A stretch of 64,000 nt of DNA from Escherichia coli (GTDB lineage: Bacteria; Pseudomonadota; Gammaproteobacteria; Enterobacterales; Enterobacteriaceae), in NCBI RefSeq assembly GCF_048403405.1, contig NZ_CP183129.1. One strand, written 5' to 3'. Positions 330 through 45,312 of this stretch are shown one piece after another. The position numbers and the translations under genes are program-made. The notes under the pieces were generated by a model. It had not been told where the DNA came from, made no database searches, and saw only the letters and a program-made list of their open reading frames with translations. How positions within the stretch are numbered: the first letter of the stretch is position 1; each line of letters opens with the position of its first letter.

Positions 330-713
330 TTAACGCTTCTCCCAGCCGCCCTGTTGTGCCGTAAATCCCAGAGCCTGCATAAACGCTGTCATCACGCCGC
401 GATCTTCCATGCCTGCATCCGCCATCCACCAGCATGAAACGCCAGGATTGTTACGCAAAACCTCTTCCAGCAGATATTGCCCCACACCGCGACGGCGGGT
501 GACTTCCCGCACGCGCAGGGAATCCAGTGCGCCCTCCGTGCCGCTTAAGGTTACCCGCACGGCCGCGAGAAGGCGCTCGTTAAAACGCGCGGCGTAGATA
601 CGGTGGTTATCGTCAACCTGTAAAGAGGAAGGGGAATACTCCGGCCAGATCTTTTGCAGGTCAATCTGGTCCTGGTCGCTAAAGTTTTCTAATCGAATGA
701 TGGTCAGCTTCAT
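330..713 (-). CDS. panM: PanD maturation factor PanM/PanZ (GNAT-fold, 127 aa)
   Basis: ORF track 127 aa MKLTIIRLENFSDQDQ...; matches recalled YhhK/PanM; position between livJ and livK as in E. coli. Confidence 0.85.
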   Translation of the reverse strand: MKLTIIRLENFSDQDQIDLQKIWPEYSPSSLQVDDNHRIYAARFNERLLAAVRVTLSGTEGALDSLRVREVTRRRGVGQYLLEEVLRNNPGVSCWWMADAGMEDRGVMTAFMQALGFTAQQGGWEKR

Positions 714-900
714 GGGGAACCCGTGTAAATCACAAAAGTGGAACCAGTGTAGCGAAATAATTTAATCGGAGGCTTTCTCTTTTTTATTTCTTTTGGCAGG
801 TGATTAATTTTTTAACAGCAATAATTACAAAGTTAAAACATTAGAGAATGAAAAATACCCAGCATAATCCCCTGAATGGTAGTGAATTATTCCGCCCTTT

Positions 901-936
901 GTGCCGTTATTTTATGCTGACAACGGCACTTTTTTC
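901..936 (+). terminator. Intrinsic terminator-like hairpin plus T-run in the panM-livK intergenic region
   Basis: gtgccgtt-attttatgctgac-aacggcac followed by tttttt; oriented on + strand upstream of livK. Confidence 0.45.
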
Positions 937-1136
937 TGTTTATCTATCAATAAATGCAGAATATTATCTGTTCTTAATCGACTGAAAAATAGGGATTTTA
1001 ATCGCTATTATCACAAAATACTGCGCTAAACCCTTAATCAGACAGGCAAAAACAGTGCAGTATAAAAAAAGAACAGTCTGATTTGTTAACACATAAAAAC
1101 AAAGCAACACAACATCACGAATGGGGATTTTTGACT

Positions 1137-2246
1137 ATGAAACGGAATGCGAAACCTATCATCGCAGGGATGATTGCACTGGCAATTTCACACACCGCTA
1201 TGGCTGACGATATTAAAGTCGCCGTTGTCGGCGCGATGTCCGGCCCGATTGCCCAGTGGGGCGATATGGAATTTAACGGCGCGCGTCAGGCGATTAAAGA
1301 CATTAATGCCAAAGGGGGAATTAAAGGCGATAAGCTGGTTGGCGTGGAATATGACGACGCCTGCGACCCGAAACAAGCCGTTGCGGTCGCCAACAAAATC
1401 GTTAACGACGGCATTAAATACGTTATTGGGCACTTGTGTTCCTCCTCTACCCAACCTGCATCAGATATCTACGAAGACGAAGGTATTCTGATGATCTCGC
1501 CGGGAGCGACCAACCCGGAGCTGACCCAACGCGGTTATCAATACATCATGCGTACTGCCGGGCTGGACTCTTCCCAGGGGCCAACGGCGGCAAAATACAT
1601 TCTTGAGACGGTGAAGCCCCAGCGCATCGCCATCATTCATGACAAACAACAGTATGGCGAAGGGCTGGCACGTTCGGTGCAGGACGGGCTGAAAGCGGCT
1701 AACGCCAACGTCGTCTTCTTCGACGGCATCACCGCTGGCGAGAAAGATTTCTCCGCGCTGATCGCCCGCCTGAAAAAAGAAAATATCGACTTCGTTTACT
1801 ACGGCGGTTACTACCCGGAAATGGGGCAGATGCTGCGCCAGGCCCGTTCTGTCGGCCTGAAAACCCAATTTATGGGGCCGGAAGGTGTGGGTAATGCGTC
1901 GTTGTCGAATATTGCTGGCGATGCTGCCGAAGGCATGTTGGTCACTATGCCAAAACGCTATGACCAGGATCCGGCAAATCAGGGCATCGTTGATGCGCTG
2001 AAAGCAGACAAGAAAGATCCGTCCGGGCCATATGTCTGGATCACTTACGCGGCGGTGCAATCTCTGGCGACTGCACTTGAGCGTACCGGCAGCGATGAGC
2101 CGCTGGCACTGGTGAAAGATTTAAAAGCTAACGGTGCAAACACCGTGATTGGGCCGCTGAACTGGGATGAAAAAGGCGATCTTAAGGGATTTGATTTTGG
2201 TGTCTTCCAGTGGCACGCCGACGGTTCATCCACGGCAGCCAAGTGA
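1137..2246 (+). CDS. livK: Leucine-specific periplasmic binding protein LivK (369 aa)
   Basis: ORF 1083..2246; native start taken at [23 protein letters not shown] (signal peptide) at 1137; type I periplasmic binding protein. Confidence 0.93.
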
Positions 2247-2253
2247 TCATCCC

Positions 2254-2280
2254 ACCGCCCGTAAAATGCGGGCGGGTTTA
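2254..2280 (+). terminator. Hairpin after livK (partial terminator / attenuator before livH)
   Basis: ccgcccg-taaaat-gcgggcgg followed by gttta, directly after the livK stop. Confidence 0.45.
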
Positions 2281-2293
2281 GAAAGGTTACCTT

Positions 2294-3220
2294 ATGTCTG
2301 AGCAGTTTTTGTATTTCTTGCAGCAGATGTTTAACGGCGTCACGCTGGGCAGTACCTACGCGCTGATAGCCATCGGCTACACCATGGTTTACGGCATTAT
2401 CGGCATGATCAACTTCGCCCACGGCGAGGTTTATATGATTGGTAGCTATGTCTCCTTTATGATCATCGCCGCACTGATGATGATGGGCATTGATACCGGC
2501 TGGCTGCTGGTGGCGGCGGGATTCGTCGGCGCAATCGTCATTGCCAGCGCCTACGGCTGGAGTATCGAACGGGTAGCCTATCGTCCGGTGCGTAACTCTA
2601 AGCGCCTGATTGCGCTTATTTCCGCAATCGGCATGTCTATCTTCCTGCAAAACTACGTTAGCCTGACCGAAGGTTCGCGCGACGTGGCGCTGCCCAGCCT
2701 GTTTAACGGTCAGTGGGTGGTGGGCCATAGCGAAAACTTCTCTGCCTCTATTACCACCATGCAGGCGGTGATATGGATTGTTACTTTCCTCGCCATGCTG
2801 GCGCTGACGATTTTCATTCGCTATTCCCGTATGGGGCGCGCCTGCCGTGCCTGCGCGGAAGATCTGAAAATGGCGAGCCTGCTTGGCATCAACACCGACC
2901 GGGTGATTGCGCTGACCTTTGTGATTGGCGCGGCGATGGCGGCGGTGGCGGGTGTGCTGCTCGGTCAGTTCTACGGCGTCATTAACCCCTACATCGGCTT
3001 TATGGCCGGGATGAAAGCCTTTACCGCTGCGGTGCTCGGTGGGATTGGCAGCATTCCGGGAGCGATGATTGGCGGCCTGATTCTGGGGATTGCGGAGGCG
3101 CTCTCTTCTGCCTATCTGAGTACGGAATATAAAGATGTGGTCTCATTCGCCCTGCTGATTCTGGTGTTGCTGGTGATGCCGACCGGTATTCTGGGTCGCC
3201 CGGAGGTAGAGAAAGTATGA
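2294..3220 (+). CDS. livH: Branched-chain amino acid ABC transporter permease LivH
   Basis: 308 aa hydrophobic [37 protein letters not shown]...; stop overlaps livM start. Confidence 0.93.
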
Positions 3221-14464: not shown

Positions 14465-14959
14465 TTATGAACAACTGTCCATGATTTCGTTTAAGAATGA
14501 AGAGAAATCACTAAACGAACTGAATATATTTTCGGTGCCAATATTATCTCTAATTTCAAAAAAGTTACTTTTAATGTCATAAGTAAATATTGAAATGCTA
14601 TCATCCCCGATCACTAACCGTTCTTGTAGATCAGGGTTTATGAAATCATCATTATTTCTATAAAATTCATTTACGGCAAAAAGGTTTTTAACTGAAGGTT
14701 CTGGAATCGAGAGGCTAAATAATCGTAATCCATTAGCTTCGAATCCATCCATTGCTCTTAAAAAAGTAAGATAATCAGGTTGATTCTTAAAAAAAATACT
14801 AACTTCATTACATAACTTCTCCAGGCAATTAGTTGAATTAGAATTAAATTCTATTTGGATTATACTTTCAATAAATGATTCCTTAAGCGGTGCTTCAAAT
14901 GGATAGTCTAAATCATTCATCATTTTTTTTAATTTATTTATTTGGGTCTTAGTCATCAT
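14465..14959 (-). CDS. Putative immunity protein for the upstream Hcp-nuclease effector (164 aa; likely intact equivalent of K-12 yrhA)
   Basis: Start ATG overlaps the stop of the upstream toxin ORF by 4 nt (ATGA); acidic, AT-rich; no recognisable catalytic motif. Immunity role inferred from context. Confidence 0.6.
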   Translation of the reverse strand: MMTKTQINKLKKMMNDLDYPFEAPLKESFIESIIQIEFNSNSTNCLEKLCNEVSIFFKNQPDYLTFLRAMDGFEANGLRLFSLSIPEPSVKNLFAVNEFYRNNDDFINPDLQERLVIGDDSISIFTYDIKSNFFEIRDNIGTENIFSSFSDFSSFLNEIMDSCS

Positions 14960-16134
14960 TTTGTGGGTTCCATAATATTTTTCATGGGAGGATAAATTGA
15001 GCCAGATGGAATGGCCCAGTGAGTGATTTTGCTTTCACCTACTAATATTCCCTTAGCTATTCGTGATTGCATGTTAGTAAAAACTTTATGATATGGTTCG
15101 TTTTCGATTAATACTAAATTTTCGAAATCGTTAGCACCACCATCATCTAGAGATAGTTTATGGTGAACATTATAATTTAGAGGAACATTGCCCTTTCTCA
15201 TTCTTAAAAGGTCTTCGGCGTTGAATCTTTCAGATGCTTCGGAGGTTTTTGCAAGTTTGATAAGAAAATTTTTTCTTACAGTTTTATTAAACTCCTTTCG
15301 TAAGTTAGCTAAGTCTTTTGAAGGTCTCTTAATGTATATTATTTCTATTATGTCTATACCATCAAGAAGTTTTTGTTGACCTCTAAGTTTGCCTAAGTAA
15401 CTATTTATTTCTGTATATGTATCAACATTAGAACGCTTTGTTAAAAGAATAGATGCTGTTGCTATCGCTATGCCCGCTGTTTTTTCATTTAGTATTTGAT
15501 CATAGCCTTTTATTGCATCTCCACCCAGTTTTTCCGCAGTATCTCTGAATCCTTCAATGTTCCCATTGTATACGCCACCAGCAGCAAGTAGCCTGCCAAT
15601 AGCTTTGCTGTTTAACGCTTTTAAACCATTATTTGTTTGGTTTTTTGAATTTGGTAAAACCAAACGGTTATAATTTTCAGGGAGTGCCAAATAGCTGAAC
15701 TCGGTATTTGCGATAAGATGTTGACAGAGGATAAATTCATAACTAACAGTTATTGTTTCTGTATCCAGTTGATTTTGAATGATCTGATGATGAATAGCCG
15801 ATAAAAAAGCGCCTCTTAGTTGTATATAATAATACTTTTCCCATCTACCAAATCTATTGATTCTATAAAAGTCAAATTCCATAAATAATTGCTCATTATT
15901 GTTAATGGAATTAATAAGTAATGGAGTGCTTTTATCAATTAATTTACAAAATGTCATACCCTGTAACTGTGAACCAAGTCCCGTATTAGTAATTCTATTT
16001 GCGAGTGAGAATGTAAATATTTCATCCTCATGCCCACTCTGCCAGCGATTACCTATAGATTCAGTAGTCCCACAACCTGCGGAGATGTTTCCTTGTTGTT
16101 CTCCCGTTACTGTCAGGTAAACAATATTACTCAT
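14956..16134 (-). CDS. yhhZ: Hcp-domain protein fused to a C-terminal HNH-type nuclease toxin domain (T6SS Hcp-effector, 392 aa)
   Basis: N-terminus is Hcp-like (MSNIVYLTVTGEQQGN...KLIDKSTPLL); C-terminus has NYNVHHKLSLDDGGANDFENLVLIENEPYH (HNH/colicin-DNase-like His motif); AT-rich. Confidence 0.75.
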   Translation of the reverse strand: MSNIVYLTVTGEQQGNISAGCGTTESIGNRWQSGHEDEIFTFSLANRITNTGLGSQLQGMTFCKLIDKSTPLLINSINNNEQLFMEFDFYRINRFGRWEKYYYIQLRGAFLSAIHHQIIQNQLDTETITVSYEFILCQHLIANTEFSYLALPENYNRLVLPNSKNQTNNGLKALNSKAIGRLLAAGGVYNGNIEGFRDTAEKLGGDAIKGYDQILNEKTAGIAIATASILLTKRSNVDTYTEINSYLGKLRGQQKLLDGIDIIEIIYIKRPSKDLANLRKEFNKTVRKNFLIKLAKTSEASERFNAEDLLRMRKGNVPLNYNVHHKLSLDDGGANDFENLVLIENEPYHKVFTNMQSRIAKGILVGESKITHWAIPSGSIYPPMKNIMEPTK

Positions 16135-16979: not shown

Positions 16980-17069
16980 GCGATCAGGAAGACCCTCGCG
17001 GAGAACCTGAAAGCACGACATTGCTCACATTGCTTCCAGTATTACTTAGCCAGCCGGGTGCTGGCTTTT
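16980..17069 (+). ncRNA. ryhB: RyhB small RNA (Fur-repressed, iron-sparing regulator)
   Basis: gcgatcaggaagaccctcgcggagaacctgaaagcacgacattgctcacattgcttccagtattacttagccagccgggtgctggctttt matches recalled RyhB; ends in a GC hairpin plus U-run; lies between yhhY and yhhX. Confidence 0.9.
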
Positions 17070-17190
17070 TTTTGATCTTTCGTTTTCAATTTATCCACGG
17101 GAAGTGCTTGTGTTCGTTATGCGCACTCCAGTAGGAACCACGTCCGCTTTGCGCTAAGGTGTAAATAATCACCTTAAAAAGGACGAAATC

Positions 17191-20934: not shown

Positions 20935-22275
20935 GTGACTACATTAACGCTTGTTTTAACAGCAGTAGGGTCTGTTTTACTGCTGCTGTTTTTAGTCATG
21001 AAGGCGCGTATGCACGCTTTCCTGGCTTTGATGGTGGTGTCCATGGGGGCTGGCCTTTTTTCCGGTATGCCGCTCGATAAAATCGCAGCGACGATGGAAA
21101 AAGGGATGGGAGGCACCCTCGGCTTCCTGGCGGTGGTTGTCGCCCTGGGAGCTATGTTTGGCAAGATCTTACATGAAACTGGCGCAGTCGATCAGATTGC
21201 CGTCAAAATGCTCAAATCCTTCGGTCACAGCCGCGCGCATTATGCCATCGGCCTTGCGGGGCTGGTCTGTGCGCTACCGCTGTTCTTTGAAGTGGCGATT
21301 GTTCTGCTGATTAGCGTTGCTTTCTCAATGGCGCGCCACACCGGTACGAACCTGGTGAAGCTGGTAATCCCATTATTCGCAGGCGTGGCGGCCGCGGCGG
21401 CATTCCTGGTACCGGGGCCAGCGCCAATGCTGCTGGCATCGCAGATGAATGCCGACTTTGGCTGGATGATCCTGATTGGCCTGTGTGCGGCAATTCCGGG
21501 AATGATTATTGCCGGGCCGCTGTGGGGTAATTTCATCAGCCGCTACGTGGAGTTGCATATTCCTGACGACATCAGCGAACCACATCTCGGTGAAGGCAAA
21601 ATGCCGTCCTTCGGATTCAGCCTGTCGCTGATCCTGTTGCCACTGGTGCTGGTGGGGCTGAAAACCATTGCCGCGCGTTTTGTGCCAGAAGGCTCTACCG
21701 CTTACGAATGGTTCGAGTTTATTGGTCATCCGTTTACCGCGATTCTGGTTGCTTGTCTGGTGGCGATTTACGGCCTGGCGATGCGTCAGGGTATGCCGAA
21801 AGATAAAGTGATGGAAATTTGCGGTCACGCGCTGCAACCGGCGGGGATCATTCTGCTGGTGATTGGTGCAGGCGGCGTGTTCAAACAGGTGCTGGTTGAC
21901 TCTGGCGTAGGTCCGGCACTGGGCGAAGCGTTAACCGGCATGGGCCTGCCGATTGCCATCACCTGCTTCGTGCTGGCCGCTGCAGTGCGCATCATTCAGG
22001 GGTCTGCAACCGTTGCCTGTTTAACGGCGGTGGGACTGGTGATGCCGGTTATTGAACAACTGAACTACTCCGGTGCGCAAATGGCGGCGCTGTCGATTTG
22101 TATCGCCGGTGGTTCGATTGTTGTCAGCCACGTTAACGACGCCGGTTTCTGGTTGTTCGGTAAATTTACCGGCGCGACTGAAGCCGAAACGCTGAAAACC
22201 TGGACCATGATGGAAACCATCCTCGGCACTGTCGGTGCCATCGTTGGGATGATTGCGTTCCAGCTGTTGAGTTAA
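20935..22275 (+). CDS. gntU: Low-affinity gluconate:H+ symporter GntU (GntP family)
   Basis: 446 aa polytopic membrane protein, paralogous to the gntT product at 61054..62370. Confidence 0.92.
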   Translation: MTTLTLVLTAVGSVLLLLFLVMKARMHAFLALMVVSMGAGLFSGMPLDKIAATMEKGMGGTLGFLAVVVALGAMFGKILHETGAVDQIAVKMLKSFGHSRAHYAIGLAGLVCALPLFFEVAIVLLISVAFSMARHTGTNLVKLVIPLFAGVAAAAAFLVPGPAPMLLASQMNADFGWMILIGLCAAIPGMIIAGPLWGNFISRYVELHIPDDISEPHLGEGKMPSFGFSLSLILLPLVLVGLKTIAARFVPEGSTAYEWFEFIGHPFTAILVACLVAIYGLAMRQGMPKDKVMEICGHALQPAGIILLVIGAGGVFKQVLVDSGVGPALGEALTGMGLPIAITCFVLAAAVRIIQGSATVACLTAVGLVMPVIEQLNYSGAQMAALSICIAGGSIVVSHVNDAGFWLFGKFTGATEAETLKTWTMMETILGTVGAIVGMIAFQLLS

Positions 22276-22285
22276 TTACTGCGAC

Positions 22286-22315
22286 AAATTACTGCGAGCT
22301 TGCTCGCAGTAATTC
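22286..22315 (+). terminator. Perfect palindrome after gntU (terminator-like, no U-tract)
   Basis: ttactgcgagc-tt-gctcgcagtaa; also a direct repeat of attactgcga (22275-22284 and 22289-22298). Confidence 0.4.
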
Positions 22316-22412
22316 ATTTCTCTTTTCACCTGTCTTCATCTTTTTGATCTTTCTCGCAAAAAGACCGGAACATTATCCGTTCTAATCACTGCGTTAACGG
22401 ACGAGGGAGAAG

Positions 22413-24512
22413 ATGATGGAGAAACACGGAGCTGAATTGCTTTTACAGCGGATGTTAGGAAATACCACCGCTACTTTCAGGGAAGGGCAATGGGAAGCCA
22501 TAGATGCAGTGGTTAATCAGCGGCGAAAACTGCTGGTTGTACAGCGCACCGGCTGGGGGAAAAGTGCCGTGTACTTCATCGCCAGTAAAATCTTCCGAGA
22601 TCGCGGCGCTGGCCCGACAATTATCATCTCTCCTTTGCTTGCCCTGATGCGTAACCAGGTTGCCGCCGCTGAACGGTTAGGTATTACGGCTGAAACGTTG
22701 AATTCTACAAACAGGGAAGAATGGCAGCGCATTAGCGATAAGTTGCTGCAAGGTGAGGTCGATTGCTTGCTGGTTTCCCCGGAACGTTTGGCAAACCAGG
22801 ACTTTATCGAAACGGTTTTGTATCCTATAGCCGATCGTATTGGCTTGCTTGTTGTCGACGAGGCGCACTGCATCTCTGATTGGGGCCACGATTTTCGCCC
22901 GGATTACCGACGTATATTAGATATTTTGCGCCAACTGCCTGCGAATACCCCTGTTCTGGGTACAACCGCGACAGCGAATAACCGTGTTGTTGAGGATATC
23001 CGTCAGCAATTGGGTGACATTGTGATTCAGCGTGGAACGCTGGCTCGCGAAAGTTTGGCGCTTGATGCCTTAGTCTTAGGAGAACAGTCATCCCGTCTGG
23101 CATGGTTAGCAACGGTTATCCCTCAGTTTTCCAAATCGGGAATTGTTTATACCCTGACGACTCGCGATGCTGAACTTGTCGCCGAGTGGTTAAGGAAAAA
23201 TGGTATCAGTGCATTTGCTTACTACAGCGGCGTGACTTGTGAAGGCGCGGAAGATTCTAATACTGCCAGGGAATATCTGGAGCAGGCACTGCTGGCAAAT
23301 AAAATCAAAGTGCTGGTCGCGACGACGGCATTAGGTATGGGGTTTGATAAACCTGATTTAGGTTTCGTCATTCATTATCAGATGCCGGGGTCTATTGTCG
23401 GTTACTACCAACAGGTGGGGCGTGCCGGGCGTGCTATAGATTCCGCAGTTGGCATATTGCTTTGTGGTGGTGAAGACCGCGCTATTCATCAATTCTTCCG
23501 TGAAAGCGCCTTTCCTGCGGAGGCGCAAATTCATGAAATACTCAACGTACTTAGCGAGAATGACGGTCTTACCCTACGAGGCATTGAACAACGGACGAAT
23601 CTTCGTTATGGGCAAATAGAAAAAGCACTGAAATTATTGGTAGCGGAAAATCCATCGCCTGTGGTGTATACCGAGAAATTATGGCGCAGAACTATCGTCA
23701 GTTTTTCTCCTGATCATGAACGAATTAACCATTTGATGAATCAGAGAAAAAGTGAGCTGGCAGACGTTGAAAGCTATATCACGACCAAGGAGTGCAAAAT
23801 GCAATTTCTGCGCCGTGCACTCGATGAGCCAAGTGCCGAACGTTGTGGTAAATGTAGTAGTTGTCTTCAGCATCCGTTATTGTCGCCCGACATTGATAGC
23901 GGCTTACTCCATGCGGCAAATTTATTTATTAAACACGCTGACCTGCCGTTAAATCTCAATAAACAGGTGGCAGCTGGGGCTTTTACGCAATACGGATTTA
24001 AAGGGAACTTGCCTGCGGGTTTACAAGGATCTACGGGGCGAATCCTTTCTCGTTGGGGAGATTCCGGGTGGGGAAAGCAGGTAGCACAGGAGAAAAAAAC
24101 GGGGCGCTTCAGTGATGAGCTGGTAGAAGCATGTGCGGAAATGGTTCGCCAACGCTGGAATCCGCATCCTGAACCAACCTGGGTATGCTGCGTTCCTTCA
24201 TTAAGACACCTCGACCTGGTTCCTGATTTTGCCCGGCGACTGGCGGCGAAACTTGGCTTACCTTTTATTGATGCCATTGAAAAAGTCGTGGACAATCCAC
24301 CGCAGAAAATGCAGCAAAACCGTTTTCACCAGTGTCAAAATCTCGACGGGGCGTTTGTGATTACCCCTCCTTTGATGCCAGGTCCGGCGTTGCTGGTTGA
24401 CGATATCGTGGATTCTGCATGGACGCTGACAGTTCTGACAGCACTGTTACGCCAGGCAGGTTGCCCGACGGTTTATCCTCTTGCCCTTGCTTCTACCTCG
24501 GTAAAAAATTGA
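22413..24512 (+). CDS. RecQ-family DNA helicase with C-terminal PRTase-like extension (699 aa); candidate toxin/effector of a PsyrTA/RqlHI-like module
   Basis: Motif 0 FREGQWEAI, Walker A TGWGKS, DEAH box VVDEAHCISDWGHDFRPDY, LGTTATA, HYQMPGSIVGYYQQVGRAGR; Zn-binding Cys cluster CKMQFLRRALDEPSAERCGKCSSC; C-terminal LLVDDIVDSAWTLTVL resembles a degenerate PRPP-binding loop. RBS GAGGGAGAAG before ATG. Not present at this locus in K-12. Confidence 0.85.
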   Translation: MMEKHGAELLLQRMLGNTTATFREGQWEAIDAVVNQRRKLLVVQRTGWGKSAVYFIASKIFRDRGAGPTIIISPLLALMRNQVAAAERLGITAETLNSTNREEWQRISDKLLQGEVDCLLVSPERLANQDFIETVLYPIADRIGLLVVDEAHCISDWGHDFRPDYRRILDILRQLPANTPVLGTTATANNRVVEDIRQQLGDIVIQRGTLARESLALDALVLGEQSSRLAWLATVIPQFSKSGIVYTLTTRDAELVAEWLRKNGISAFAYYSGVTCEGAEDSNTAREYLEQALLANKIKVLVATTALGMGFDKPDLGFVIHYQMPGSIVGYYQQVGRAGRAIDSAVGILLCGGEDRAIHQFFRESAFPAEAQIHEILNVLSENDGLTLRGIEQRTNLRYGQIEKALKLLVAENPSPVVYTEKLWRRTIVSFSPDHERINHLMNQRKSELADVESYITTKECKMQFLRRALDEPSAERCGKCSSCLQHPLLSPDIDSGLLHAANLFIKHADLPLNLNKQVAAGAFTQYGFKGNLPAGLQGSTGRILSRWGDSGWGKQVAQEKKTGRFSDELVEACAEMVRQRWNPHPEPTWVCCVPSLRHLDLVPDFARRLAAKLGLPFIDAIEKVVDNPPQKMQQNRFHQCQNLDGAFVITPPLMPGPALLVDDIVDSAWTLTVLTALLRQAGCPTVYPLALASTSVKN

Positions 24513-25714
24513 TGAATCTTTCAGCCAATGCACAAGCAACCCTCCTGCTAACCAGCGATTTTTCTCGCGCGGCGGCGAGTGAGTATAAACCTCTTAGTAA
24601 TAGTGAATGGGGGAAGTTTGCATTATGGCTGAAGCACCAACGTATCAGTCCCGCCGATCTTCTGGTGCCGCAACCGCAAGAGAAACTTACAGGCTGGAGC
24701 GATCCGCGTATTTCTCAGGAGCGTATTCTTGGCTTGCTGGCGCGTGGTCATAGTCTGGCGTTGGCGGTAGATAAGTGGCAACGCGCCGGATTATGGATCT
24801 TAACCCGCGGAGATGCCGATTATCCCGTTCGCTTGAAAAACCGATTGCGAACGGATGCTCCTCCCGTTTTATTTGGCTGCGGGAATAAAGCATTATTGCA
24901 AGCGGAAGGTATGGCGATTGTTGGCTCGCGAGATGCTCCGACTGCCGATTTGCGCTATACCCAACAACTGGCAGCGAAACTGGCCCAACAGGGGATTTGC
25001 GTTATCTCTGGTGGTGCGCGAGGTATTGATGAATGTGCAATGGCGTCGGCACTGGAGGCCGGGGGAACTGCCGTTGGCGTATTAGCTGATAGTTTGTTAA
25101 AAACAAGCACGTTAGTGAAATGGCGTAAAGGGCTTATAGCAGGCAACCTGGTGTTGATTTCACCGTTTTACCCAGAGGTACGTTTCACTGTCGGCAATGC
25201 GATGGCGCGGAATAAATATATTTATTGCCTTGCTGAAAGCGCAATGGTTGTACGTGCGGGAATGACCGGTGGAACGATAACCGGAGCGATGGAGGCGTTA
25301 AAACATCAGTGGCTGCCTGTTCTGGTTAAACCAAATCAGGATGTGCAATCAGCCAATTCACGTTTAGTAGAAAATGGGGCGTCATGGAGTGCTGAACAGG
25401 CTGAGAATGTGACGATCAGACTGCCAGATGTTCCTGGGCTGATGTATGACAGAGCACTCCGTAACGCTCAACCAGAATTGTTTTCGCTGCACGAAGATGA
25501 CGCAAATTACGCAGTAATGCCCGCGCATACCCCTGTCGATTTTTATCAACTCTTTGTGGCGGAACTGGCGATCCTTGCAAAGGAATCGATAAGTATTGAA
25601 AGGCTGGCGTCTTGTACTGGTTTAACCATCGAACAAATTAGTGTGTGGCTGAACCGCGCAGAAGAAGAGGGAAGGGTTATCCGATTGGGCGAAGGTCATT
25701 ATCAGTTCAGGTAA
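24512..25714 (+). CDS. DprA/Smf-like (SLOG-superfamily) protein (400 aa); candidate antitoxin/partner
   Basis: ORF 24419..25714; ATG at 24512 (MNLSANAQ...) overlaps the helicase TGA by 1 nt. DprA hallmarks: DADYPVRLKNRLRTDAPPVLFGCGNKALL, Rossmann segment IVGSRDAPT...ISGGARGIDECAM, C-terminal winged-helix-like region. Confidence 0.85.
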   Translation: MNLSANAQATLLLTSDFSRAAASEYKPLSNSEWGKFALWLKHQRISPADLLVPQPQEKLTGWSDPRISQERILGLLARGHSLALAVDKWQRAGLWILTRGDADYPVRLKNRLRTDAPPVLFGCGNKALLQAEGMAIVGSRDAPTADLRYTQQLAAKLAQQGICVISGGARGIDECAMASALEAGGTAVGVLADSLLKTSTLVKWRKGLIAGNLVLISPFYPEVRFTVGNAMARNKYIYCLAESAMVVRAGMTGGTITGAMEALKHQWLPVLVKPNQDVQSANSRLVENGASWSAEQAENVTIRLPDVPGLMYDRALRNAQPELFSLHEDDANYAVMPAHTPVDFYQLFVAELAILAKESISIERLASCTGLTIEQISVWLNRAEEEGRVIRLGEGHYQFR

Positions 25715-25716
25715 TA

Positions 25717-25754
25717 AAACAGGTGCCGCGTCTGGTTGTGTGCAGCACCTGTTT
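25717..25754. terminator. Hairpin between the convergent DprA-like gene and yhgN
   Basis: aaacaggtgc-(loop)-gcacctgttt inverted repeat. Confidence 0.45.
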
Positions 25755-25759
25755 GAACC

Positions 25760-26353
25760 TTACCCCTTCATCCACATTCGAATCCCGTCGAGGAACATCT
25801 GGGTTGCCATCATCACCAGAATCAATCCCATCAGGCGTTCAAGTGCATTCACCCCTTTCTCGCCCAGCAGACGTAAAAATAGCGAAGACTGTAGCAGGAT
25901 GACAAAGGTGCCGCCCCAGGCCAGTAGCAGAGCAATTACCAGATGTCCCATCTGATTCGGGTACTGATGAGACAACAACATCAGCGTGGCGAGAATAGTC
26001 GGCCCGGCGACTAACGGAATTGCCAACGGCACGATAAACGGCTCTTCACCTGCCGGAAGCCCGCTGCTATTTCCTGAAGCACTGGGGAAAATCATCTTAA
26101 TGGCGATCAGAAACAGAATGATGCCGCCAGAAATGGAGACGGTTTCTGCCCGCAGGCTAAGAAATGCCAGAATTTTCTCACCCGCAAACAGGAACACCAG
26201 CATCACCAGGAGAGCAATAAGCAACTCTCGCACCATGATTGCCCGCCGTCTTTTCGGTTCAGTATGTTTCAGTACGGACATGAAAATAGGTAGGTTTCCG
26301 AGCGGATCCATAATCAGGATCAATAAAACTGCTGCAGAAATGATTTCATTCAT
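25760..26353 (-). CDS. yhgN: MarC-family inner membrane protein YhgN
   Basis: 197 aa hydrophobic protein MNEIISAAVLLILIMDPLGNLPIFMSVL... Confidence 0.88.
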   Translation of the reverse strand: MNEIISAAVLLILIMDPLGNLPIFMSVLKHTEPKRRRAIMVRELLIALLVMLVFLFAGEKILAFLSLRAETVSISGGIILFLIAIKMIFPSASGNSSGLPAGEEPFIVPLAIPLVAGPTILATLMLLSHQYPNQMGHLVIALLLAWGGTFVILLQSSLFLRLLGEKGVNALERLMGLILVMMATQMFLDGIRMWMKG

Positions 26354-26544
26354 AACTCAAATTCCCTGATAATTGCCGCGGACTTTCTGCGTGCTAACAA
26401 AGCAGGATAAGTCGCATTACTGATGGCTTCGCTATCATTGATTAATTTCACTTGCGACTTTGGCTGCTTTTTGTATGGTGAAAGATGTGCCAAGAGGAGA
26501 CCGGCACATTTATACAGCACACATCTTTGCAGGAAAAAACGCTT

Positions 26545-32094: not shown

Positions 32095-33390
32095 ATGGTT
32101 AGTTTAGAGAAGAACGATCACTTAATGTTGGCGCGCCAGCTGCCATTGAAATCTGTTGCCCTGATACTGGCGGGAGGACGTGGTACCCGCCTGAAGGATT
32201 TAACCAATAAGCGAGCAAAACCGGCCGTACACTTCGGCGGTAAGTTCCGCATTATCGACTTTGCGCTGTCTAACTGCATCAACTCCGGGATCCGTCGTAT
32301 GGGCGTGATCACCCAGTACCAGTCCCACACTCTGGTGCAGCACATTCAGCGCGGCTGGTCATTCTTCAATGAAGAAATGAACGAGTTTGTCGATCTGCTG
32401 CCAGCACAGCAGAGAATGAAAGGGGAAAACTGGTATCGCGGCACCGCAGATGCAGTTACCCAAAACCTCGACATTATCCGCCGTTATAAAGCGGAATACG
32501 TGGTGATCCTGGCGGGCGACCATATCTACAAGCAAGACTACTCGCGTATGCTTATCGACCACGTCGAAAAAGGCGCACGTTGCACCGTTGCTTGTATGCC
32601 AGTACCGATTGAAGAAGCCTCCGCATTTGGCGTTATGGCGGTTGATGAGAACGATAAAATTATCGAATTCGTTGAAAAACCAGCTAACCCGCCGTCAATG
32701 CCGAACGATCCGAGCAAATCTCTGGCGAGTATGGGTATCTACGTCTTTGACGCCGACTATCTGTATGAACTGCTGGAAGAAGACGATCGCGATGAGAACT
32801 CCAGCCACGACTTTGGCAAAGATTTGATTCCCAAGATCACCGAAGCCGGTCTGGCCTATGCACACCCATTCCCGCTCTCTTGCGTACAATCCGACCCGGA
32901 TGCCGAGCCGTACTGGCGCGATGTGGGTACGCTGGAAGCTTACTGGAAAGCGAACCTCGATCTGGCCTCTGTGGTGCCGGAACTGGATATGTACGATCGC
33001 AATTGGCCAATTCGCACCTACAATGAATCATTACCGCCAGCGAAATTCGTGCAGGATCGCTCCGGTAGCCACGGGATGACCCTTAACTCACTGGTATCCG
33101 GCGGTTGTGTGATCTCCGGTTCGGTGGTGGTGCAGTCCGTTCTGTTCTCGCGCGTTCGCGTGAATTCATTCTGCAACATTGATTCCGCCGTATTGTTACC
33201 GGAAGTATGGGTAGGTCGCTCGTGCCGTCTGCGCCGCTGCGTCATCGATCGTGCTTGTGTTATTCCGGAAGGCATGGTGATTGGTGAAAACGCAGAGGAA
33301 GATGCACGTCGTTTCTATCGTTCAGAAGAAGGCATCGTGCTGGTAACGCGCGAAATGCTACGGAAGTTAGGGCATAAACAGGAGCGATAA
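32095..33390 (+). CDS. glgC: Glucose-1-phosphate adenylyltransferase GlgC (431 aa)
   Basis: ORF 32059..33390; start taken at [33 protein letters not shown] (32095). Confidence 0.93.
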
Positions 33391-34823
33391 TGCAGGTTTT
33401 ACATGTATGTTCAGAGATGTTCCCGCTGCTTAAAACCGGCGGTCTGGCTGATGTTATTGGGGCATTACCCGCAGCACAAATCGCAGACGGCGTTGACGCT
33501 CGCGTACTGTTGCCTGCATTTCCCGATATTCGCCGTGGCGTGACCGATGCGCAGGTAGTATCCCGTCGTGATACCTTCGCCGGACATATCACGCTGTTGT
33601 TCGGTCATTACAACGGGGTTGGCATTTACCTGATTGACGCGCCGCATCTCTATGATCGTCCGGGAAGCCCGTATCACGATACCAACTTATTTGCCTATAC
33701 CGACAACGTATTGCGTTTTGCGCTGCTGGGGTGGGTTGGGGCAGAAATGGCTAGCGGGCTTGACCCATTCTGGCGTCCTGATGTGGTGCATGCGCACGAC
33801 TGGCATGCAGGCCTTGCGCCTGCGTATCTGGCGGCGCGCGGGCGTCCGGCGAAGTCGGTGTTTACTGTGCACAACCTGGCCTATCAAGGCATGTTTTATG
33901 CACATCACATGAATGACATCCAATTGCCATGGTCATTCTTTAATATTCATGGGCTGGAATTCAACGGACAAATCTCTTTCCTGAAGGCCGGTCTGTACTA
34001 TGCCGATCACATTACGGCGGTCAGTCCAACCTACGCTCGCGAGATCACCGAACCGCAGTTTGCCTACGGTATGGAAGGTCTGTTGCAACAGCGTCACCGT
34101 GAAGGGCGTCTTTCCGGCGTACTGAACGGCGTGGACGAGAAAATCTGGAGTCCAGAGACGGACTTACTGTTGGCCTCGCGTTACACCCGCGATACGTTGG
34201 AAGATAAAGCGGAAAATAAGCGCCAGTTACAAATCGCAATGGGGCTTAAGGTTGACGATAAAGTGCCGCTTTTTGCAGTGGTGAGCCGTCTGACCAGCCA
34301 GAAAGGTCTCGACCTGGTGCTGGAGGCCTTACCGGGTCTTCTGGAGCAGGGCGGGCAACTGGCGCTACTCGGCGCGGGCGATCCGGTGCTGCAGGAAGGT
34401 TTCCTTGCGGCGGCAGCGGAATACCCCGGCCAGGTGGGCGTTCAGATTGGCTATCACGAAGCATTTTCGCATCGCATTATGGGCGGCGCGGACGTCATTC
34501 TGGTGCCCAGCCGTTTTGAACCGTGCGGCTTAACGCAACTTTATGGATTGAAGTACGGTACGCTGCCGTTAGTGCGGCGCACCGGTGGGCTTGCTGATAC
34601 GGTTTCTGACTGTTCTCTTGAGAACCTTGCAGATGGCGTCGCCAGTGGGTTTGTCTTTGAAGATAGTAATGCCTGGTCGCTGTTACGGGCTATTCGACGT
34701 GCTTTTGTACTGTGGTCCCGTCCTTCACTGTGGCGGTTTGTGCAACGTCAGGCTATGGCAATGGATTTTAGCTGGCAGGTCGCGGCGAAGTCGTACCGTG
34801 AGCTTTACTATCGCTTGAAATAG
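33390..34823 (+). CDS. glgA: Glycogen synthase GlgA
   Basis: 477 aa; [22 protein letters not shown] (KTGGL motif). Confidence 0.94.
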
Positions 34824-37773: not shown

Positions 37774-38478
37774 ATGAAATTCAATCTATCTAATTTATCC
37801 GCAGTTTTACTCGCATCAGGTATGCTGATGTCAACTGCGGTAACCGCTGCGCCAGGCGATGCATCACAATTTGGTGGTGCGGATACAGACTGGAGCACCG
37901 TTGATTATCCAAAACTCACCGATATGGATAGCAACACCGATGCGATGGGCGGAAACATCCGCTTTACTGGTCGTGTGGTTAAAGCGACGTGTAAGGTTGC
38001 TACAGAATCGAAACAGATTGAAGTGGTACTGCCAGTCGTACCTTCTAACGCTTTCACGGGCATTGATACCGAAGCAACGGGTGCCAGTAACCAGACTGAC
38101 TTCAACATTAAATTGACTGATTGTAGCAATACGGACAGTCAAAATATTGAATTTCGTTTTACTGGCGTAGCAGACGGTGCCAACCAGACGCTTGCCAATG
38201 AAGTGGAAGGAGCTGCTGATGCTGATGGTACTGGCGAAGCGGGAGCTACGGGTGTAGGGATTCGTATTTATTCTAAAAACACGACAACTGATGGCCTGAT
38301 TAAGCTGAACACACAAACTCCCCAGGGGAGTAGTTCTTCAGCAGCCTACGTGATTCCTGGCGATGCAGCCACTCATGATTTTACTGCGGCATTTACCGCG
38401 GGCTATGCTCAGAACGGTAGTACCGTTGCACCAGGTCTGGTGAAATCAACGGCAAGTTTCGTCGTGCTGTACGAATAA
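37774..38478 (+). CDS. Fimbrial major subunit (chaperone-usher pilin, 234 aa)
   Basis: Signal peptide MKFNLSNLSAVLLASGMLMSTAVTAA; conserved Cys pair; C-terminal SFVVLYE resembles a pilin donor-strand-acceptor terminus; RBS aaggaaagg. Confidence 0.8.
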   Translation: MKFNLSNLSAVLLASGMLMSTAVTAAPGDASQFGGADTDWSTVDYPKLTDMDSNTDAMGGNIRFTGRVVKATCKVATESKQIEVVLPVVPSNAFTGIDTEATGASNQTDFNIKLTDCSNTDSQNIEFRFTGVADGANQTLANEVEGAADADGTGEAGATGVGIRIYSKNTTTDGLIKLNTQTPQGSSSSAAYVIPGDAATHDFTAAFTAGYAQNGSTVAPGLVKSTASFVVLYE

Positions 38479-38598
38479 TTACAGCAAGATAATTTCAGGT
38501 TACAGTTACTTGTAACCTGAAATTAATATTACATGTTTATTTGTAATAAATAGACATGCATCAGTAATTACAATTAATTTCATCTACAAGGATGCAGT

Positions 38599-39351
38599 AT
38601 GAGATGGATTTCAAAAAATAAATGTTTTTCGAATAGAAACATTAATTCTTTGCTGAAGACCCAATATATCATAAGGGCCGGTGCTCTATTTTTACTATCC
38701 GCCATATCTATCAATGCTATTGCTGCGGGTGGCTTCGGTCTTGGTTCTACGCGTCTGGTTTATCCATCTGACAGTCAGCAAATTACGCTAAGTGTACAGA
38801 ATGGTGGGGCTAACACCAGCTATTTAATCCAGTCATGGATTGATGACAATCAAAGCAGTAAAAAAAGTCAGGATTTTGTGGTTACGCCTCCTTTATTTAT
38901 GTTACCAACGCGAAAAGAAGCCTCATTGAGGATAATGTTTATTGGTAAATCACAGTTACCGACTGATCGCGAAACATTATTCTGGATGAATGTGAAAGCG
39001 ATTCCGCCAACGGATGAGAAGAATACCCAGAAAAACACGTTACAACTGGCGTTACAAAACAGAATTAAATTATTTTACCGTCCGACTAATTTACCCGTTC
39101 AAGCTGGTAAAGCACGGGATATGCTGCGATTTAAATACGAAGGTAAACAGCTAAGAGTCATTAACCCTTCTCCCTATTATCTGACGGTGACTGGAATCAG
39201 GGTGCAAGGGGCAAAATTACCCAATGCGTTTGTTCCACCGAAAAGTGACGTAACAGTGTCTTCACCAGTGATGCTAGCCGGTGAAATTACTTATCAAACT
39301 ATCAATGATTACGGTGCCACAACGGCCAGGCAAAAGGGAACGATGCAATAA
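38599..39351 (+). CDS. Periplasmic fimbrial chaperone (PapD-like)
   Basis: 250 aa; conserved chaperone segments LGSTRLVYPSDSQ and NRIKLFYRP. Confidence 0.85.
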   Translation: MRWISKNKCFSNRNINSLLKTQYIIRAGALFLLSAISINAIAAGGFGLGSTRLVYPSDSQQITLSVQNGGANTSYLIQSWIDDNQSSKKSQDFVVTPPLFMLPTRKEASLRIMFIGKSQLPTDRETLFWMNVKAIPPTDEKNTQKNTLQLALQNRIKLFYRPTNLPVQAGKARDMLRFKYEGKQLRVINPSPYYLTVTGIRVQGAKLPNAFVPPKSDVTVSSPVMLAGEITYQTINDYGATTARQKGTMQ

Positions 39352-39392
39352 ACCTGGAAGATTAAAACGTTAAAGCAACTCAGGTCAGGGAT

Positions 39393-41984
39393 ATGAACCT
39401 AAAGCTCAGAAAACTCGAACACAGGATGGCAAGGCAGAAGCAGATGAGGCGGTGTATGCTGCTTCTACTGACACTTTTGCCTGCGTGTTCAGTGGCGGGT
39501 ATGCGCTTTAACCCTGCATTCCTGTCGGGTGATACAGAAGCTGTTGCTGATTTATCTCGTTTTGAGAAAGGGATGACATATCTACCTGGTAGTTATGAGG
39601 TTGAAATATGGGTCAATGATTCGCCTTTGACATCACGTAAGGTTACTTTCAAAGCTGATGAGCAGAATCAGTTGATCCCCTGTTTTTCGCTCGATGAGTT
39701 AGTTACTTTAGGAATTAACAAAAGTGCATTGCCGGAACAGGCGCAAGCAGAGGGAAATAATTGTCTCGATTTACGTATATGGTTCGCAGAAGTTCAATAC
39801 ACTCCTGAACTGGATGCGCAACGACTCAAACTGACCTTTCCGCAGGCAATATTAAAGCATGAAGCCCGTGGTTATATTCCACCTGAGGAATGGGATAATG
39901 GTATCCCGGCCATTCTTATTAATTATGATTTTTCTGGCAACAGTGATCGTGGAGACTATGCGTCTGATAGTTATTATTTAAATCTCCGTTCAGGTTTAAA
40001 TTTAGGGGCGTGGCGTTTTCGTGATTATTCTACATGGAGTCGTTCAGGTAATTCACCGGGTAAAATTGCACATGTGAGTAGTACGTTACAACGAGTAATT
40101 ATTCCTTTTAAAAGTGAATTAACACTAGGTGATACCTGGTCTTCATCGGATGTTTTCGACAGTGTGAGTATTCGTGGTGCTAAACTTGAATCCGATGAAA
40201 ACATGCTACCCGATAGCCAAAGTGGTTTTGCCCCCACTGTGCGCGGTATTGCTAAAAGCAATGCTCAGGTAACGATCAAACAAAATGGCTATGTTATTTA
40301 TCAGACATATACTCCACCGGGACCCTTTGAAATCAACGATCTGAACCCTACGTCTTCCGCTGGGGATTTGGAAGTTACGATCAAAGAGTCTGATAATTCC
40401 GAAACTATCTATACCATTCCTTACGCCGCTGTTCCCATTCTTCAACGCGAAGGGCATATTAAATATTCGGCAACTGCCGGTAAATATCGTAGCAATAGCT
40501 ATAATCAAAACAGTCCGAATGTCTTTCAAGGAGATTTGATTTGGGGGTTACCCTGGGATATTACCGCCTACGGAGGGATGCAATACTCAAATAATTATCG
40601 GGCAATAGCACTCGGGCTTGGGTTCAACCTTGGTATGTTTGGTGCGACGTCATTTGATTTAACGCAAGCCAATAGCACGCTTGCCGATGGCAGTAAACAT
40701 CAAGGGCAATCGTACCGTTTCCTATATTCAAAATCGTTAGTGCAGACAGGTACGGCTTTTCAGATTATTGGTTATCGCTATTCGACGGAGGGATTTTATT
40801 CGTTGAGTGATACCACATACAAACAAATGTCGGGTACGGTTATCGATCCAGATACCCTTAATGAAAAAGACTATGTTTATAACTGGAATGATTTTTATAA
40901 TTTACGTTATAACAAAAGAGGAAAGTTTCAGGCAAATATATCGCAACCATTGGGCGAATATGGCTCTATGTATTTGGCGGCAAGTCAACAAACTTACTGG
41001 AATACGAATAATAAAGATACCTTGTATCAGGTCGGCTATAATACGAGTGTACATGGGATTTATTTAAATATTGCTTATAATTATAGTAAGTCACCAGGTT
41101 CAGATGCGGACAGAATCTTATCCGTAAATGTCTCATTGCCGATCAGCAATTGGTTATCACCAGCTGTCGATGGGCGTACTGCGACAAATTCTATGACAGC
41201 AACTTATGGTTATAGTCAGGATAATAGCGGTCATGTAAATCAGTATGCCGGAGTATCTGGATCGCTGCTGGAACAACATAATCTCAACTATAATATTCAA
41301 CAAAATTTTGCCAACCAGAATAATGGCGAAAATGGCTCGGTAGGGATAAATTACCGTGGTACATATGGTTCACTAAATTCTGGATACAGCTACGATAATA
41401 ATGGTAACCAGCAATTTAACTATGGTTTAAGTGGTGCCCTGGTTATTCACGAAAATGGTCTCACGTTAAGCCAGCCGTTAGGAGAAACAAATATACTGAT
41501 AAAAGCACCTGGGGCAAACAATGTAAATGTGGAACGCGGAACGGGGGTTAAAACAGACTGGCGTGGCTATGCTGTCGTACCTTATGCCACGGAATATCGG
41601 CGTAATAATATCTCTTTAGACCCTATGTCTATGAGTATGCATACAGAATTAGATGCTACTACTATGGAAGTGATACCCAGCAAAGGTGCTTTAGTTCGTG
41701 CTGAGTTTAATGCACATGTCGGTATTCGAGGTTTATTTAATGTTCATTATCGTAATAAACCAGTTCCATTTGGTGCGACGGTCAGTGTACCCACTGAGGG
41801 GACAACTCAGATTACAGGAATAGTGGGTGACAGTGGACAGGTTTATCTCTCCGGTTTGCCTTTACAAGGCATAATAAATATACAGTGGGGAGAAAGTTCT
41901 TATCAGCAATGTCGGGCAAACTATCAATTACCGGAAAGTGAGTTGGATAATGCCATTAGCTATGCAAATCTGGAGTGCCGCTAA
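39393..41984 (+). CDS. Outer membrane fimbrial usher protein
   Basis: 863 aa; N-terminal FNPAFL usher motif; beta-rich, size typical of ushers. The exact start within the first ~35 codons is uncertain. Confidence 0.88.
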   Translation: MNLKLRKLEHRMARQKQMRRCMLLLLTLLPACSVAGMRFNPAFLSGDTEAVADLSRFEKGMTYLPGSYEVEIWVNDSPLTSRKVTFKADEQNQLIPCFSLDELVTLGINKSALPEQAQAEGNNCLDLRIWFAEVQYTPELDAQRLKLTFPQAILKHEARGYIPPEEWDNGIPAILINYDFSGNSDRGDYASDSYYLNLRSGLNLGAWRFRDYSTWSRSGNSPGKIAHVSSTLQRVIIPFKSELTLGDTWSSSDVFDSVSIRGAKLESDENMLPDSQSGFAPTVRGIAKSNAQVTIKQNGYVIYQTYTPPGPFEINDLNPTSSAGDLEVTIKESDNSETIYTIPYAAVPILQREGHIKYSATAGKYRSNSYNQNSPNVFQGDLIWGLPWDITAYGGMQYSNNYRAIALGLGFNLGMFGATSFDLTQANSTLADGSKHQGQSYRFLYSKSLVQTGTAFQIIGYRYSTEGFYSLSDTTYKQMSGTVIDPDTLNEKDYVYNWNDFYNLRYNKRGKFQANISQPLGEYGSMYLAASQQTYWNTNNKDTLYQVGYNTSVHGIYLNIAYNYSKSPGSDADRILSVNVSLPISNWLSPAVDGRTATNSMTATYGYSQDNSGHVNQYAGVSGSLLEQHNLNYNIQQNFANQNNGENGSVGINYRGTYGSLNSGYSYDNNGNQQFNYGLSGALVIHENGLTLSQPLGETNILIKAPGANNVNVERGTGVKTDWRGYAVVPYATEYRRNNISLDPMSMSMHTELDATTMEVIPSKGALVRAEFNAHVGIRGLFNVHYRNKPVPFGATVSVPTEGTTQITGIVGDSGQVYLSGLPLQGIINIQWGESSYQQCRANYQLPESELDNAISYANLECR

Positions 41985-42547
41985 TGAATATATTACAAAA
42001 ATTTATTCTATTAATGTTTAGATCATTGTTCATGATGGTGATTTCATATAACGCACTGGCTAACGATACTGTAGTGGTCACATTTACAGGACAATTATTA
42101 GCGAAAACGTGTGATATTACAACTGGAAGTAAAGACCAGCCAGTAAACATGGGAACTTATGACGTCAATGATTTTTTGAATGTAGGGGATGTTTCTGGCA
42201 GCCATACATTTACGATCAATCTGGAAGGATGTCCTACAACAACCAGTACTGTTTATAGTTCAGGAGTAAGTGCTAATGTGCAGTTTACCGGGGATGCTGA
42301 TGCTATAAATACCACTTTATTACGCCTTACTTCCAGCGCGGATAGTGCAACTGGAGTGGGCATCGAAATTTTAGACAGTAATGATAAAATTATAGCAATT
42401 AATAGTGAATCAGGATTCAAAGAGTTAATTTTAAATAATAATGGCGATGCCAGTTTAACCTTTAAACTCCGCTATAAGTCAACTCAGCAAAACGTACATG
42501 CGGGACAGGCGAACGCACTATTGTACTTTGATATAGACTATCAGTGA
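41984..42547 (+). CDS. Fimbrial minor subunit
   Basis: ORF 41975..42547 begins at GTG; ATG at 41984 overlaps the usher stop and gives signal peptide MNILQKFILLMFRSLFMMVISYNALA; pilin-like Cys pair. Confidence 0.78.
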   Translation: MNILQKFILLMFRSLFMMVISYNALANDTVVVTFTGQLLAKTCDITTGSKDQPVNMGTYDVNDFLNVGDVSGSHTFTINLEGCPTTTSTVYSSGVSANVQFTGDADAINTTLLRLTSSADSATGVGIEILDSNDKIIAINSESGFKELILNNNGDASLTFKLRYKSTQQNVHAGQANALLYFDIDYQ

Positions 42548-42554
42548 GGTTAAT

Positions 42555-43824: not shown

Positions 43825-43834
43825 CTGGAGAAGC

Positions 43835-44968: not shown

Positions 44969-45312
44969 TGTGTGAGTCAGTGCAGAATCGGATTAGCCCG
45001 TTTTTAGCCATCGGTAGGGTAAAGTTTGATGGAAAATATGGGTTATGTGCCGATGTATCCCACAATGAAATAACCCTCGAGGGAAAGGAATCAGCGCGAT
45101 GAACAAATTCACGGTGTTTTGCTGCTAGGTGTGGTATTTCTCGGCTTTATTATTGTACCGTTCTTGATATGGCCGACGGTGGTTGCGCTGGCTGCTTGTA
45201 TTATTACGCTGAGTTTTCTGGGGAGATACTGTTCTCTATCCCGCTCATGATCAGGCATATTTCACTTCTGGAATTACAACTTTGGTTATCGGTTGTATAT
45301 GCGCTTTGTCCA

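Follow-up and report, generated by a model that had tools for sequence, protein, structure and literature searches.

In the stretch of Escherichia coli DNA analysed here (64,000 nucleotides (nt) of contig NZ_CP183129.1; hereafter the window, whose positions serve as coordinates throughout and refer to the + strand unless stated otherwise), a gene for a RecQ-like helicase and a gene for a DprA-like protein meet at a one-nucleotide stop/start overlap, TGATG. The pair is, with very little room for doubt, the known E. coli RqlH/RqlI system, alias PsyrT/PsyrA, and we consider it likely that the overlap, taken with everything that surrounds it, is the cistron junction of the rqlH-rqlI operon, at which RqlI would be translated by termination-reinitiation. 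Earlier publications cover the system, the structure of its operon and the coupling of genes at −1 and −4 overlaps as a general phenomenon, and in that sense the finding is already known; what the present analysis adds is a corrected start codon for rqlI, a quantified conservation of the junction and a synonymous-site constraint on a GGTR motif ahead of the rqlI start.

The names PsyrT and PsyrA, which are reportedly tied to Sberro 2013 and Millman 2022, are also those of the PADLOC models that identify the two proteins. The upstream gene product matches PsyrT with an E-value of 0, residues 3–698 of the 699-amino-acid (aa) open reading frame (ORF) aligning with model positions 4–687 of 689. 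This ORF runs from 22413 to 24512 (699 codons, closed by TGA at 24510–24512); the annotated start of rqlH gives a 698-aa product, and it is the adjacent in-frame ATG at 22413 that would make it 699 aa. Pfam recognizes DEAD, Helicase_C and RecQ_Zn_bind, and the protein passes the NCBIfam recQ_fam subfamily model, but misses the recQ equivalog TIGR01389 (296.3 against a cut-off of 640.2). Its C-terminal phosphoribosyltransferase (PRTase) domain gives a weak Pfam Pribosyltran match (E = 4.5e-4, below the gathering cut-off). The downstream product matches PsyrA over its full length (1.6e-201), and in Pfam DNA_processg_A on residues 89–292 (5.8e-50) and SLOG cluster4; a C-terminal helix-turn-helix is represented by sub-threshold matches only (E 0.03–0.2), and the score against the dprA equivalog TIGR00732 lies below the cut-off (102.7 against 191.15). 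As neither protein reaches its NCBIfam equivalog cut-off, an identity as housekeeping RecQ and DprA was rejected. Both genes are on one strand, with that for the toxin directly 5' of that for the antitoxin; the sizes of 698 and 400 aa agree with those published for RqlH and RqlI (PMC4670107), and the DIVD phosphoribosyl pyrophosphate (PRPP)-loop motif falls at residue 663 of the 698-aa form, this being the motif, DIVD663, that was mutated by Russell & Mulvey (PMC4670107). A search of the PDB returned no PsyrT or PsyrA structure, its matches being limited to RecQ cores, DprA and ShosA. Elsewhere in the window, gntX (63365–64000, − strand, truncated where the window ends), annotated as 'DNA utilization protein GntX', encodes a ComF-family PRTase-like protein, which is the housekeeping relative of the PRTase domain of competence type considered for RqlH.

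The biology of the pair has been described for strain F11, where RT-PCR (reverse transcription followed by PCR) placed rqlH and rqlI on one transcript (PMC4670107). Without RqlI, RqlH is genotoxic via its C-terminal PRTase domain; RqlI binds this domain and neutralizes the toxicity, and it co-immunoprecipitates with RqlH solely when the PRTase domain is present (PMC4670107). Russell & Mulvey considered the system to be non-canonical in both gene order and protein size (PMC4670107). The literature also lists PsyrTA among the toxin-antitoxin systems with anti-phage activity, and reports that transformation of a psyrA deletion did not succeed, possibly owing to toxicity, and that the PsyrTA of E. 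coli NILS69 gave no protection against the phages tested. The first-pass annotation had called the layout typical of toxin-antitoxin or effector-immunity pairs, and the two genes do form a toxin-antitoxin-like system, on the PADLOC matches to PsyrT and PsyrA and, for the ortholog, on the single operon, the binding and the toxicity in the absence of RqlI. What does not stand is the argument from layout to function.

Indeed, the layout that was read as a sign of such pairs is shared by ordinary genes of the metabolic operons liv, ugp and glg in the same window. Stop and start lie within −8 to +6 nt of each other in 12 of its 39 same-strand neighbour pairs, and there are six 4-nt ATGA overlaps: livH/M, livM/G, ugpA/E, ugpC/Q, glgB/X, and yrhA with an Hcp-like gene. 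The glgC/glgA pair, which has the same 1-nt overlap (TAATG, 33388–33392) with a good Shine-Dalgarno (SD) sequence (CAGGAG) ahead of it, provides an internal control. Across the E. coli genome, 24% of same-strand pairs fall within −8 to +6 nt, −4 and −1 being the commonest spacings (PMC10666635). Because eight ordinary operon pairs in the window carry them, 1-nt and 4-nt overlaps are unfit for calling toxin-antitoxin or effector-immunity pairs; the right conclusion was drawn from a non-specific cue. A single TGATG is not beyond chance, the pentamer occurring 166 times on the + strand of the window; the conservation of the junction is. As for the Hcp-like gene mentioned above (region 14465–16134, − strand), it encodes a 392-aa protein annotated as the T6SS tube protein TssD, long enough for a C-terminal extension, and overlaps the downstream yrhA by 4 nt (ATGA), with yrhB and a yrhD pseudogene following; these two genes are possibly an Hcp-toxin/immunity pair, and as such a genuine candidate for the kind of pair that had been sought at the TGATG.

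The choice of start codon for rqlI decides whether the TGATG is a junction at all. RefSeq, through its annotation pipeline PGAP, starts the DprA-like gene at the in-frame ATG 24419, which gives a coding sequence of 24419..25714, a protein of 431 aa and a 94-nt overlap with rqlH; were this model right, the TGATG would merely contain an internal Met codon. PGAP chooses this start in this and in other E. coli genomes, a protein cluster of 3041 members has the 431-aa form as its representative, and the frame is open from 24419. We nevertheless regard the longer protein as highly improbable. Met-Asn, encoded from 24512 to 24517, is the N-terminus in all 28 aligned homologs (52–72% identity; invariant M32/N33 of the alignment), and the 31-codon extension from 24419 is found in no homolog of this alignment, nor in any outside E. 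coli. In many relatives, in-frame stops lie 3–48 nt upstream of the rqlI ATG, mostly without an alternative upstream start codon. The PsyrA model of PADLOC agrees with the shorter form, its positions 1–397 of 398 covering residues 1–400 counted from ATG 24512, as does the functional RqlI used experimentally, which was of 400 aa (Russell & Mulvey, PMC4670107). ATG 24419 itself lies within GCA TGG, which encodes Ala-Trp in the helicase's conserved PRPP loop, and its SD match is likewise weak. Thus, the start at ATG 24512 proposed by the first-pass annotation is borne out by homolog alignment, model and published size, and improves on RefSeq: on homology it is the true start, and the database annotation is probably wrong, the start at 24419 having been rejected on the absence of the extension from homologs and the upstream in-frame stops in relatives. 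In all four intact E. coli records inspected, the annotation is 31 codons too long, and it is probably a systematic start-site misannotation, overlapping the PRPP-loop codons of the helicase. Its effects are tangible: the long model produces a spurious 94-nt overlap and has the effect that an A7 variant at the junction (see below) is counted as a frameshift of the DprA-like gene.

From 24498 to 24521, the window reads ...TCG GTA AAA AAT TGA TGA ATC TTT..., and the geometry of the overlap had been described correctly: the helicase TGA (24510–24512) and the ATG (24512–24514) have base A 24512 in common, giving a stop-to-start distance of −1. The second in-frame helicase stop, TGA 24513–15, corresponds to the ATGA overlap that is typical of the family. 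A 60-mer spanning the junction (24472–24531) is identical in three other E. coli strains. Across species, we examined 80 homologous loci taken from one-genome-per-species contigs, of which 79 were evaluable and, together with the window, make 80; the locus left out of the distance count has a helicase remnant of 39 codons (L041), although even there a TAATG is kept. Stop and start lie within −4 to +6 nt of each other in 80/80 evaluable loci, the distance being −4 (ATGA) in 50, −1 in 16, 0 in one, +1 in 12 and +6 in one. The loci span gamma- and alpha-proteobacteria, plus metagenome-assembled genomes labelled Chloroflexi and Acidobacteria. In a subset of 31 representatives whose helicase C-termini share <80% identity, the corresponding numbers at −4, −1, 0, +1 and +6 are 13, 10, 1, 6 and 1, and from this split among diverged sequences it follows that the junction type has changed repeatedly, each time within the range of reinitiation. 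The RqlI start is ATG AAY in most gammaproteobacterial homologs, so that the TGA of an ATGA is always in the helicase frame. The helicase ends in AAT TGA TGA in E. coli and in AAT GGA TGA in its closest relative, Silvania (L001); on this comparison of sequences, the 1-nt overlap of E. coli goes back, by one substitution, to the 4-nt ATGA overlap usual in the family, with the old stop left behind as a tandem stop.

The SD sequence of rqlI consists of GGT only, and its duplex with the 3' end of 16S rRNA (−3.1 kcal/mol) is among the weakest of the reliably placed starts in the window; the median for the other listed starts is −5.5 kcal/mol, a comparison that is approximate, the first 16 of the starts having been read 1 nt off; no conclusion rests on those 16, and the value for rqlI and those for the later starts are correct. 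The motif is drawn from the last helicase codons, and it is there that a constraint becomes visible. Among non-redundant homologs that share a ...S/T-V... helicase C-terminus, and with this terminus as the anchor, the third base of the Ser/Thr codon is G in 20/22 (background 98/510; Fisher p=3e-12) and the Val codon is GTR, that is GTG or GTA, in 22/22 (background 286/549; Fisher p=1.6e-6), and the neighbouring Leu and Ala codons vary freely. Since the synonymous sites are constrained to NCG GTR, GGTR is fixed at −12 to −9 from the ATG in the −4 and −1 classes; the clade with a distance of +1 has GGAG or GGGG 7–10 nt upstream instead. A sigma-70 scan of 22000–26500 found no promoter-like site on the + strand, a weak negative given that this insensitive scan missed the operon's own promoter too, and a search of Rfam gave no match at the junction.

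Termination-reinitiation coupling is the mechanism best supported by these sequence data, and we hold it to be moderately probable. Ribosomes that end rqlH at the UGA 24510–12 would reinitiate on the overlapping AUG 24512–14, probably assisted by the weak SD-like GGTR at −12 to −9, which is conserved across the family. The synthesis of RqlI would then be tied to that of RqlH in time, place and amount, and the toxic PRTase domain, which emerges from the ribosome after the rest of RqlH, could be bound immediately, in a complex of roughly 1:1. In its support, we count the 80/80 loci within −4 to +6 nt against the 24% baseline of E. coli same-strand pairs, the weak SD of rqlI, the negative promoter scan and the synonymous NCG GTR constraint. 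There is also precedent: experiments have shown termination-reinitiation in 4 of 5 native E. coli pairs that overlap by 4 nt, the effect collapses once stop and start are about 20 nt apart, and subunits of heteromeric complexes are enriched in short overlaps (PMC6728339, PMC10666635).

Alternatively, the overlap could be a neutral by-product of operon compaction, with RqlI translated by ordinary de novo initiation. Such an explanation would sit well with the prevalence of −4 and −1 spacings, and with the dozen close pairs in the window, those of liv, ugp and glg included; moreover, an ATGA follows automatically from an invariant Met-Asn start, and the helicase would then simply end at or just before the TGA. 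De novo initiation has its own precedent in bioBF of E. coli, where a downstream gene with a weak SD initiates independently despite the overlap (Huber et al.). We consider this alternative unlikely, if the most serious to be weighed here, as clades in which the second codon of rqlI is not Asn (MI.., MT.., MD.., MH..) keep distances of −4, −1 or +1 regardless, and the +1 clade, in which the helicase frame is shifted relative to rqlI, nevertheless keeps a distance of ≤1 nt. Furthermore, the synonymous constraint on GGTR indicates selection on a translational signal, and the SD match of E. coli rqlI is too weak for efficient independent initiation.

Several observations weigh against coupling by reinitiation, the bioBF precedent being the first of them. 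With the toxin gene first, reinitiation yields at most one RqlI per RqlH, which would be odd if an excess of antitoxin were needed. RNA folding of 24452–24571 (z=−0.98) gave no unusual start-hiding structure that would enforce coupling, and the promoter scan was, as noted, insensitive enough to be blind to the operon's own promoter. The loci are phylogenetically related, so the 80/80 count overstates their independence, and the Fisher p-values, which ignore this relatedness, do the same. Finally, there are rare genomes in which rqlH and rqlI are >2 kb apart (Russell & Mulvey, PMC4670107).

With respect to stoichiometry, coupling would leave RqlI at most equimolar with RqlH because the toxin gene is upstream, so that it is the antitoxin rather than the toxin that is capped; such an equimolar cap fits a stable 1:1 complex better than it does the classical labile antitoxin made in excess. 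The strict junction, together with the conservation of GGTR, yields a specific hypothesis for the way in which the toxin:antitoxin ratio of PsyrTA/RqlHI is set. A bolder version, which we put forward tentatively and think rather improbable, is that antitoxin synthesis depends obligatorily on ribosomes fresh from the toxin gene, and that the junction is part of an infection sensor. If this were true, assembly of the 1:1 complex would be co-translational, and toxicity would ensue whenever reinitiation was perturbed, for example by phage interference with translation termination or initiation.

The nucleotides directly before the rqlH stop could suggest quite a different event, namely a programmed −1 frameshift on A_AAA_AAU, stimulated by the adjacent UGA (a 'shifty stop'), yielding some RqlH-RqlI fusion. 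A shift of −1 would indeed give a fusion, since rqlI lies in the −1 frame of rqlH, and that frame is open across the junction. The heptamer is in the correct frame right before the stop, translation in the −1 frame would run on into rqlI as ...K K L M N L S..., and no stop interrupts the rqlI frame over the 111 nt ahead of the ATG; in one genome, moreover, an A7 variant puts the fusion frame into the genomic sequence. That genome is of strain WP4-S17-ESBL-03 (L083, 2601–2681), in which A7 replaces A6 (24503–24508 of the window), so that the helicase frame joins rqlI in an ORF of 542..2884; it has a second indel following the first, and therefore the variant may be a homopolymer sequencing error. 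The heptamer is confined to the lineages of E. coli, Silvania and Klebsiella grimontii, most relatives having GTG AAA GAC TCA, and in many of them the rqlI frame is closed by a stop right before the ATG. No downstream stimulatory structure was seen in the RNA fold of the junction region, and AAU compares poorly with AAG as a slip codon. A frameshift fusion was judged unlikely on the lack of conservation of the heptamer in the family and the upstream closure of the rqlI frame in many relatives; indeed, we give it hardly any credence.

The rqlHI genes sit in a 3.48-kb accessory insert, 22276–25759, between gntU and yhgN. In E. coli 042, which has the empty site, 56 nt separate the gntU and yhgN stop codons; the insert replaces this 042-type spacer exactly between the two stops, and has its own hairpins at both edges (Table 1). 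An 80-mer from the junction (24472–24551) is present in 1650 of 5426 complete E. coli genomes (about 30%), always on the chromosome, and window 22300–25800 is 100% identical to the corresponding region of E. coli strain 4621 (NZ_CP103479); a 1-base indel relative to the same genome lies somewhere between 16134 and 17191. The toxin gene alone has decayed in two of the loci: in O157:H7 BB24-1 (L087, 416–3742) a frameshift and an internal stop have split it into three or more ORF pieces, with rqlI intact, and in Rheinheimera soli (L041, ~3880–5190) the 39-codon remnant of the helicase lies beside an intact rqlI. Toxin-only decay in O157:H7 and Rheinheimera soli fits the usual pattern for toxin-antitoxin pairs, in which the toxin is lost first.

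Table 1. Coordinates of the rqlH-rqlI genes, of the elements at their junction and of the edges of the insert
Feature	Position	Strand	Remarks
Terminator-like hairpin after gntU	22287..22314	+	Left edge of insert
rqlH / psyrT: RecQ-family helicase with C-terminal PRTase toxin domain	22416..24512	+	698 aa; PGAP coordinates
PRTase (toxic) domain region	23940..24485	+	RqlH residues 509-690; limits from PMC4670107; includes PRPP-loop motif LLVDDIVDSAWT
93-nt N-terminal extension annotated by RefSeq/PGAP	24419..24511	+	Most likely untranslated as part of RqlI
GGTA, weak SD-like motif in last helicase codons (TCG GTA)	24500..24503	+	-12..-9 from rqlI ATG
A AAA AAT: A6 run, in-frame X_XXY_YYZ heptamer directly before stop	24503..24509	+	Sequence reading
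TGATGA junction	24510..24515	+	rqlH stop 24510-12, rqlI ATG 24512-14, second in-frame rqlH stop TGA 24513-15
rqlI / psyrA: DprA/SLOG-like antitoxin, 400 aa	24512..25714	+	PADLOC, Pfam, Met-Asn start
Inverted repeat, 13-nt arms, between rqlI stop and convergent yhgN stop	25717..25754	.	Probably terminator; right edge

A further accessory insert is probably represented by the region of a seven-gene chaperone-usher fimbrial operon (37774–44968), which lies between glgP and glpD and is followed by a frameshifted pseudogene (45107–45321). Within it, a fimbrial subunit gene (42555–43079) overlaps a chaperone gene (43045–43824) by 35 nt, which may reflect the start-site call. The Rfam search identified two elements that pass the gathering score, namely the small RNA RyhB (83 bits, 17009–17073), between yhhY and yhhX, and ES036/CssrF (43.6 bits, 45347–45389), upstream of glpD. 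Near the beginning of the window, at ~183–880, a copy of IS1 with a programmed frameshift lies upstream of livK.

The canonical type II toxin-antitoxin operons, relBE and mazEF among them, consist of adjacent co-transcribed genes, often with overlapping cistrons, whose products bind one another and whose toxin does harm unless its partner is present. The rqlHI operon differs from these in that the toxin gene is upstream, and in that its products have 698 and 400 aa instead of about 100 aa; with a 698-aa toxin upstream and a 400-aa antitoxin downstream, its classification as a canonical type II operon was rejected. In addition, the rqlHI double deletion raises the number of persisters rather than lowering it (PMC4670107). 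Closer in composition is ShosT-ShosA, likewise a PRTase-containing toxin with a DprA-like antitoxin, in which expression of ShosT, too, gives DNA damage and filamentation (PMC11961720, PMC12961424). The antitoxins are related in sequence, RqlI matching the PADLOC ShosA model at 3e-27 and the ShosA structure in PDB entry 9vzo at 6e-8. Unlike RqlH, however, ShosT has no RecQ helicase (PMC11961720, PMC12961424), and, in contrast to RqlI, which co-immunoprecipitates with RqlH, ShosA reportedly does not bind its toxin strongly (type IV).

As regards the junction, rqlH-rqlI shares with the termination-reinitiation pairs (Huber et al. 2019, 2023) a same-strand spacing of −1 or −4, an SD-like motif within the upstream gene and products that form heteromers; the motif of E. 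coli rqlI is, however, among the weakest in the window, and we infer the coupling of rqlH-rqlI, whereas that of the Huber pairs was measured. The closest counterpart of all is RqlH-RqlI of extraintestinal pathogenic E. coli F11 (PMC4670107), from the same species and with the same architecture and gene order, DIVD at 663 and a 400-aa DprA-like partner, which was likewise described as two adjacent genes set apart from their neighbours. There the genes were said to be 'close to or overlapping', their junction, start annotation and translational coupling being left unanalysed (PMC4670107). Between that system and the locus in the window there is essentially no difference: the latter is an allele of the same locus, which is 96–100% identical across E. 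coli genomes.

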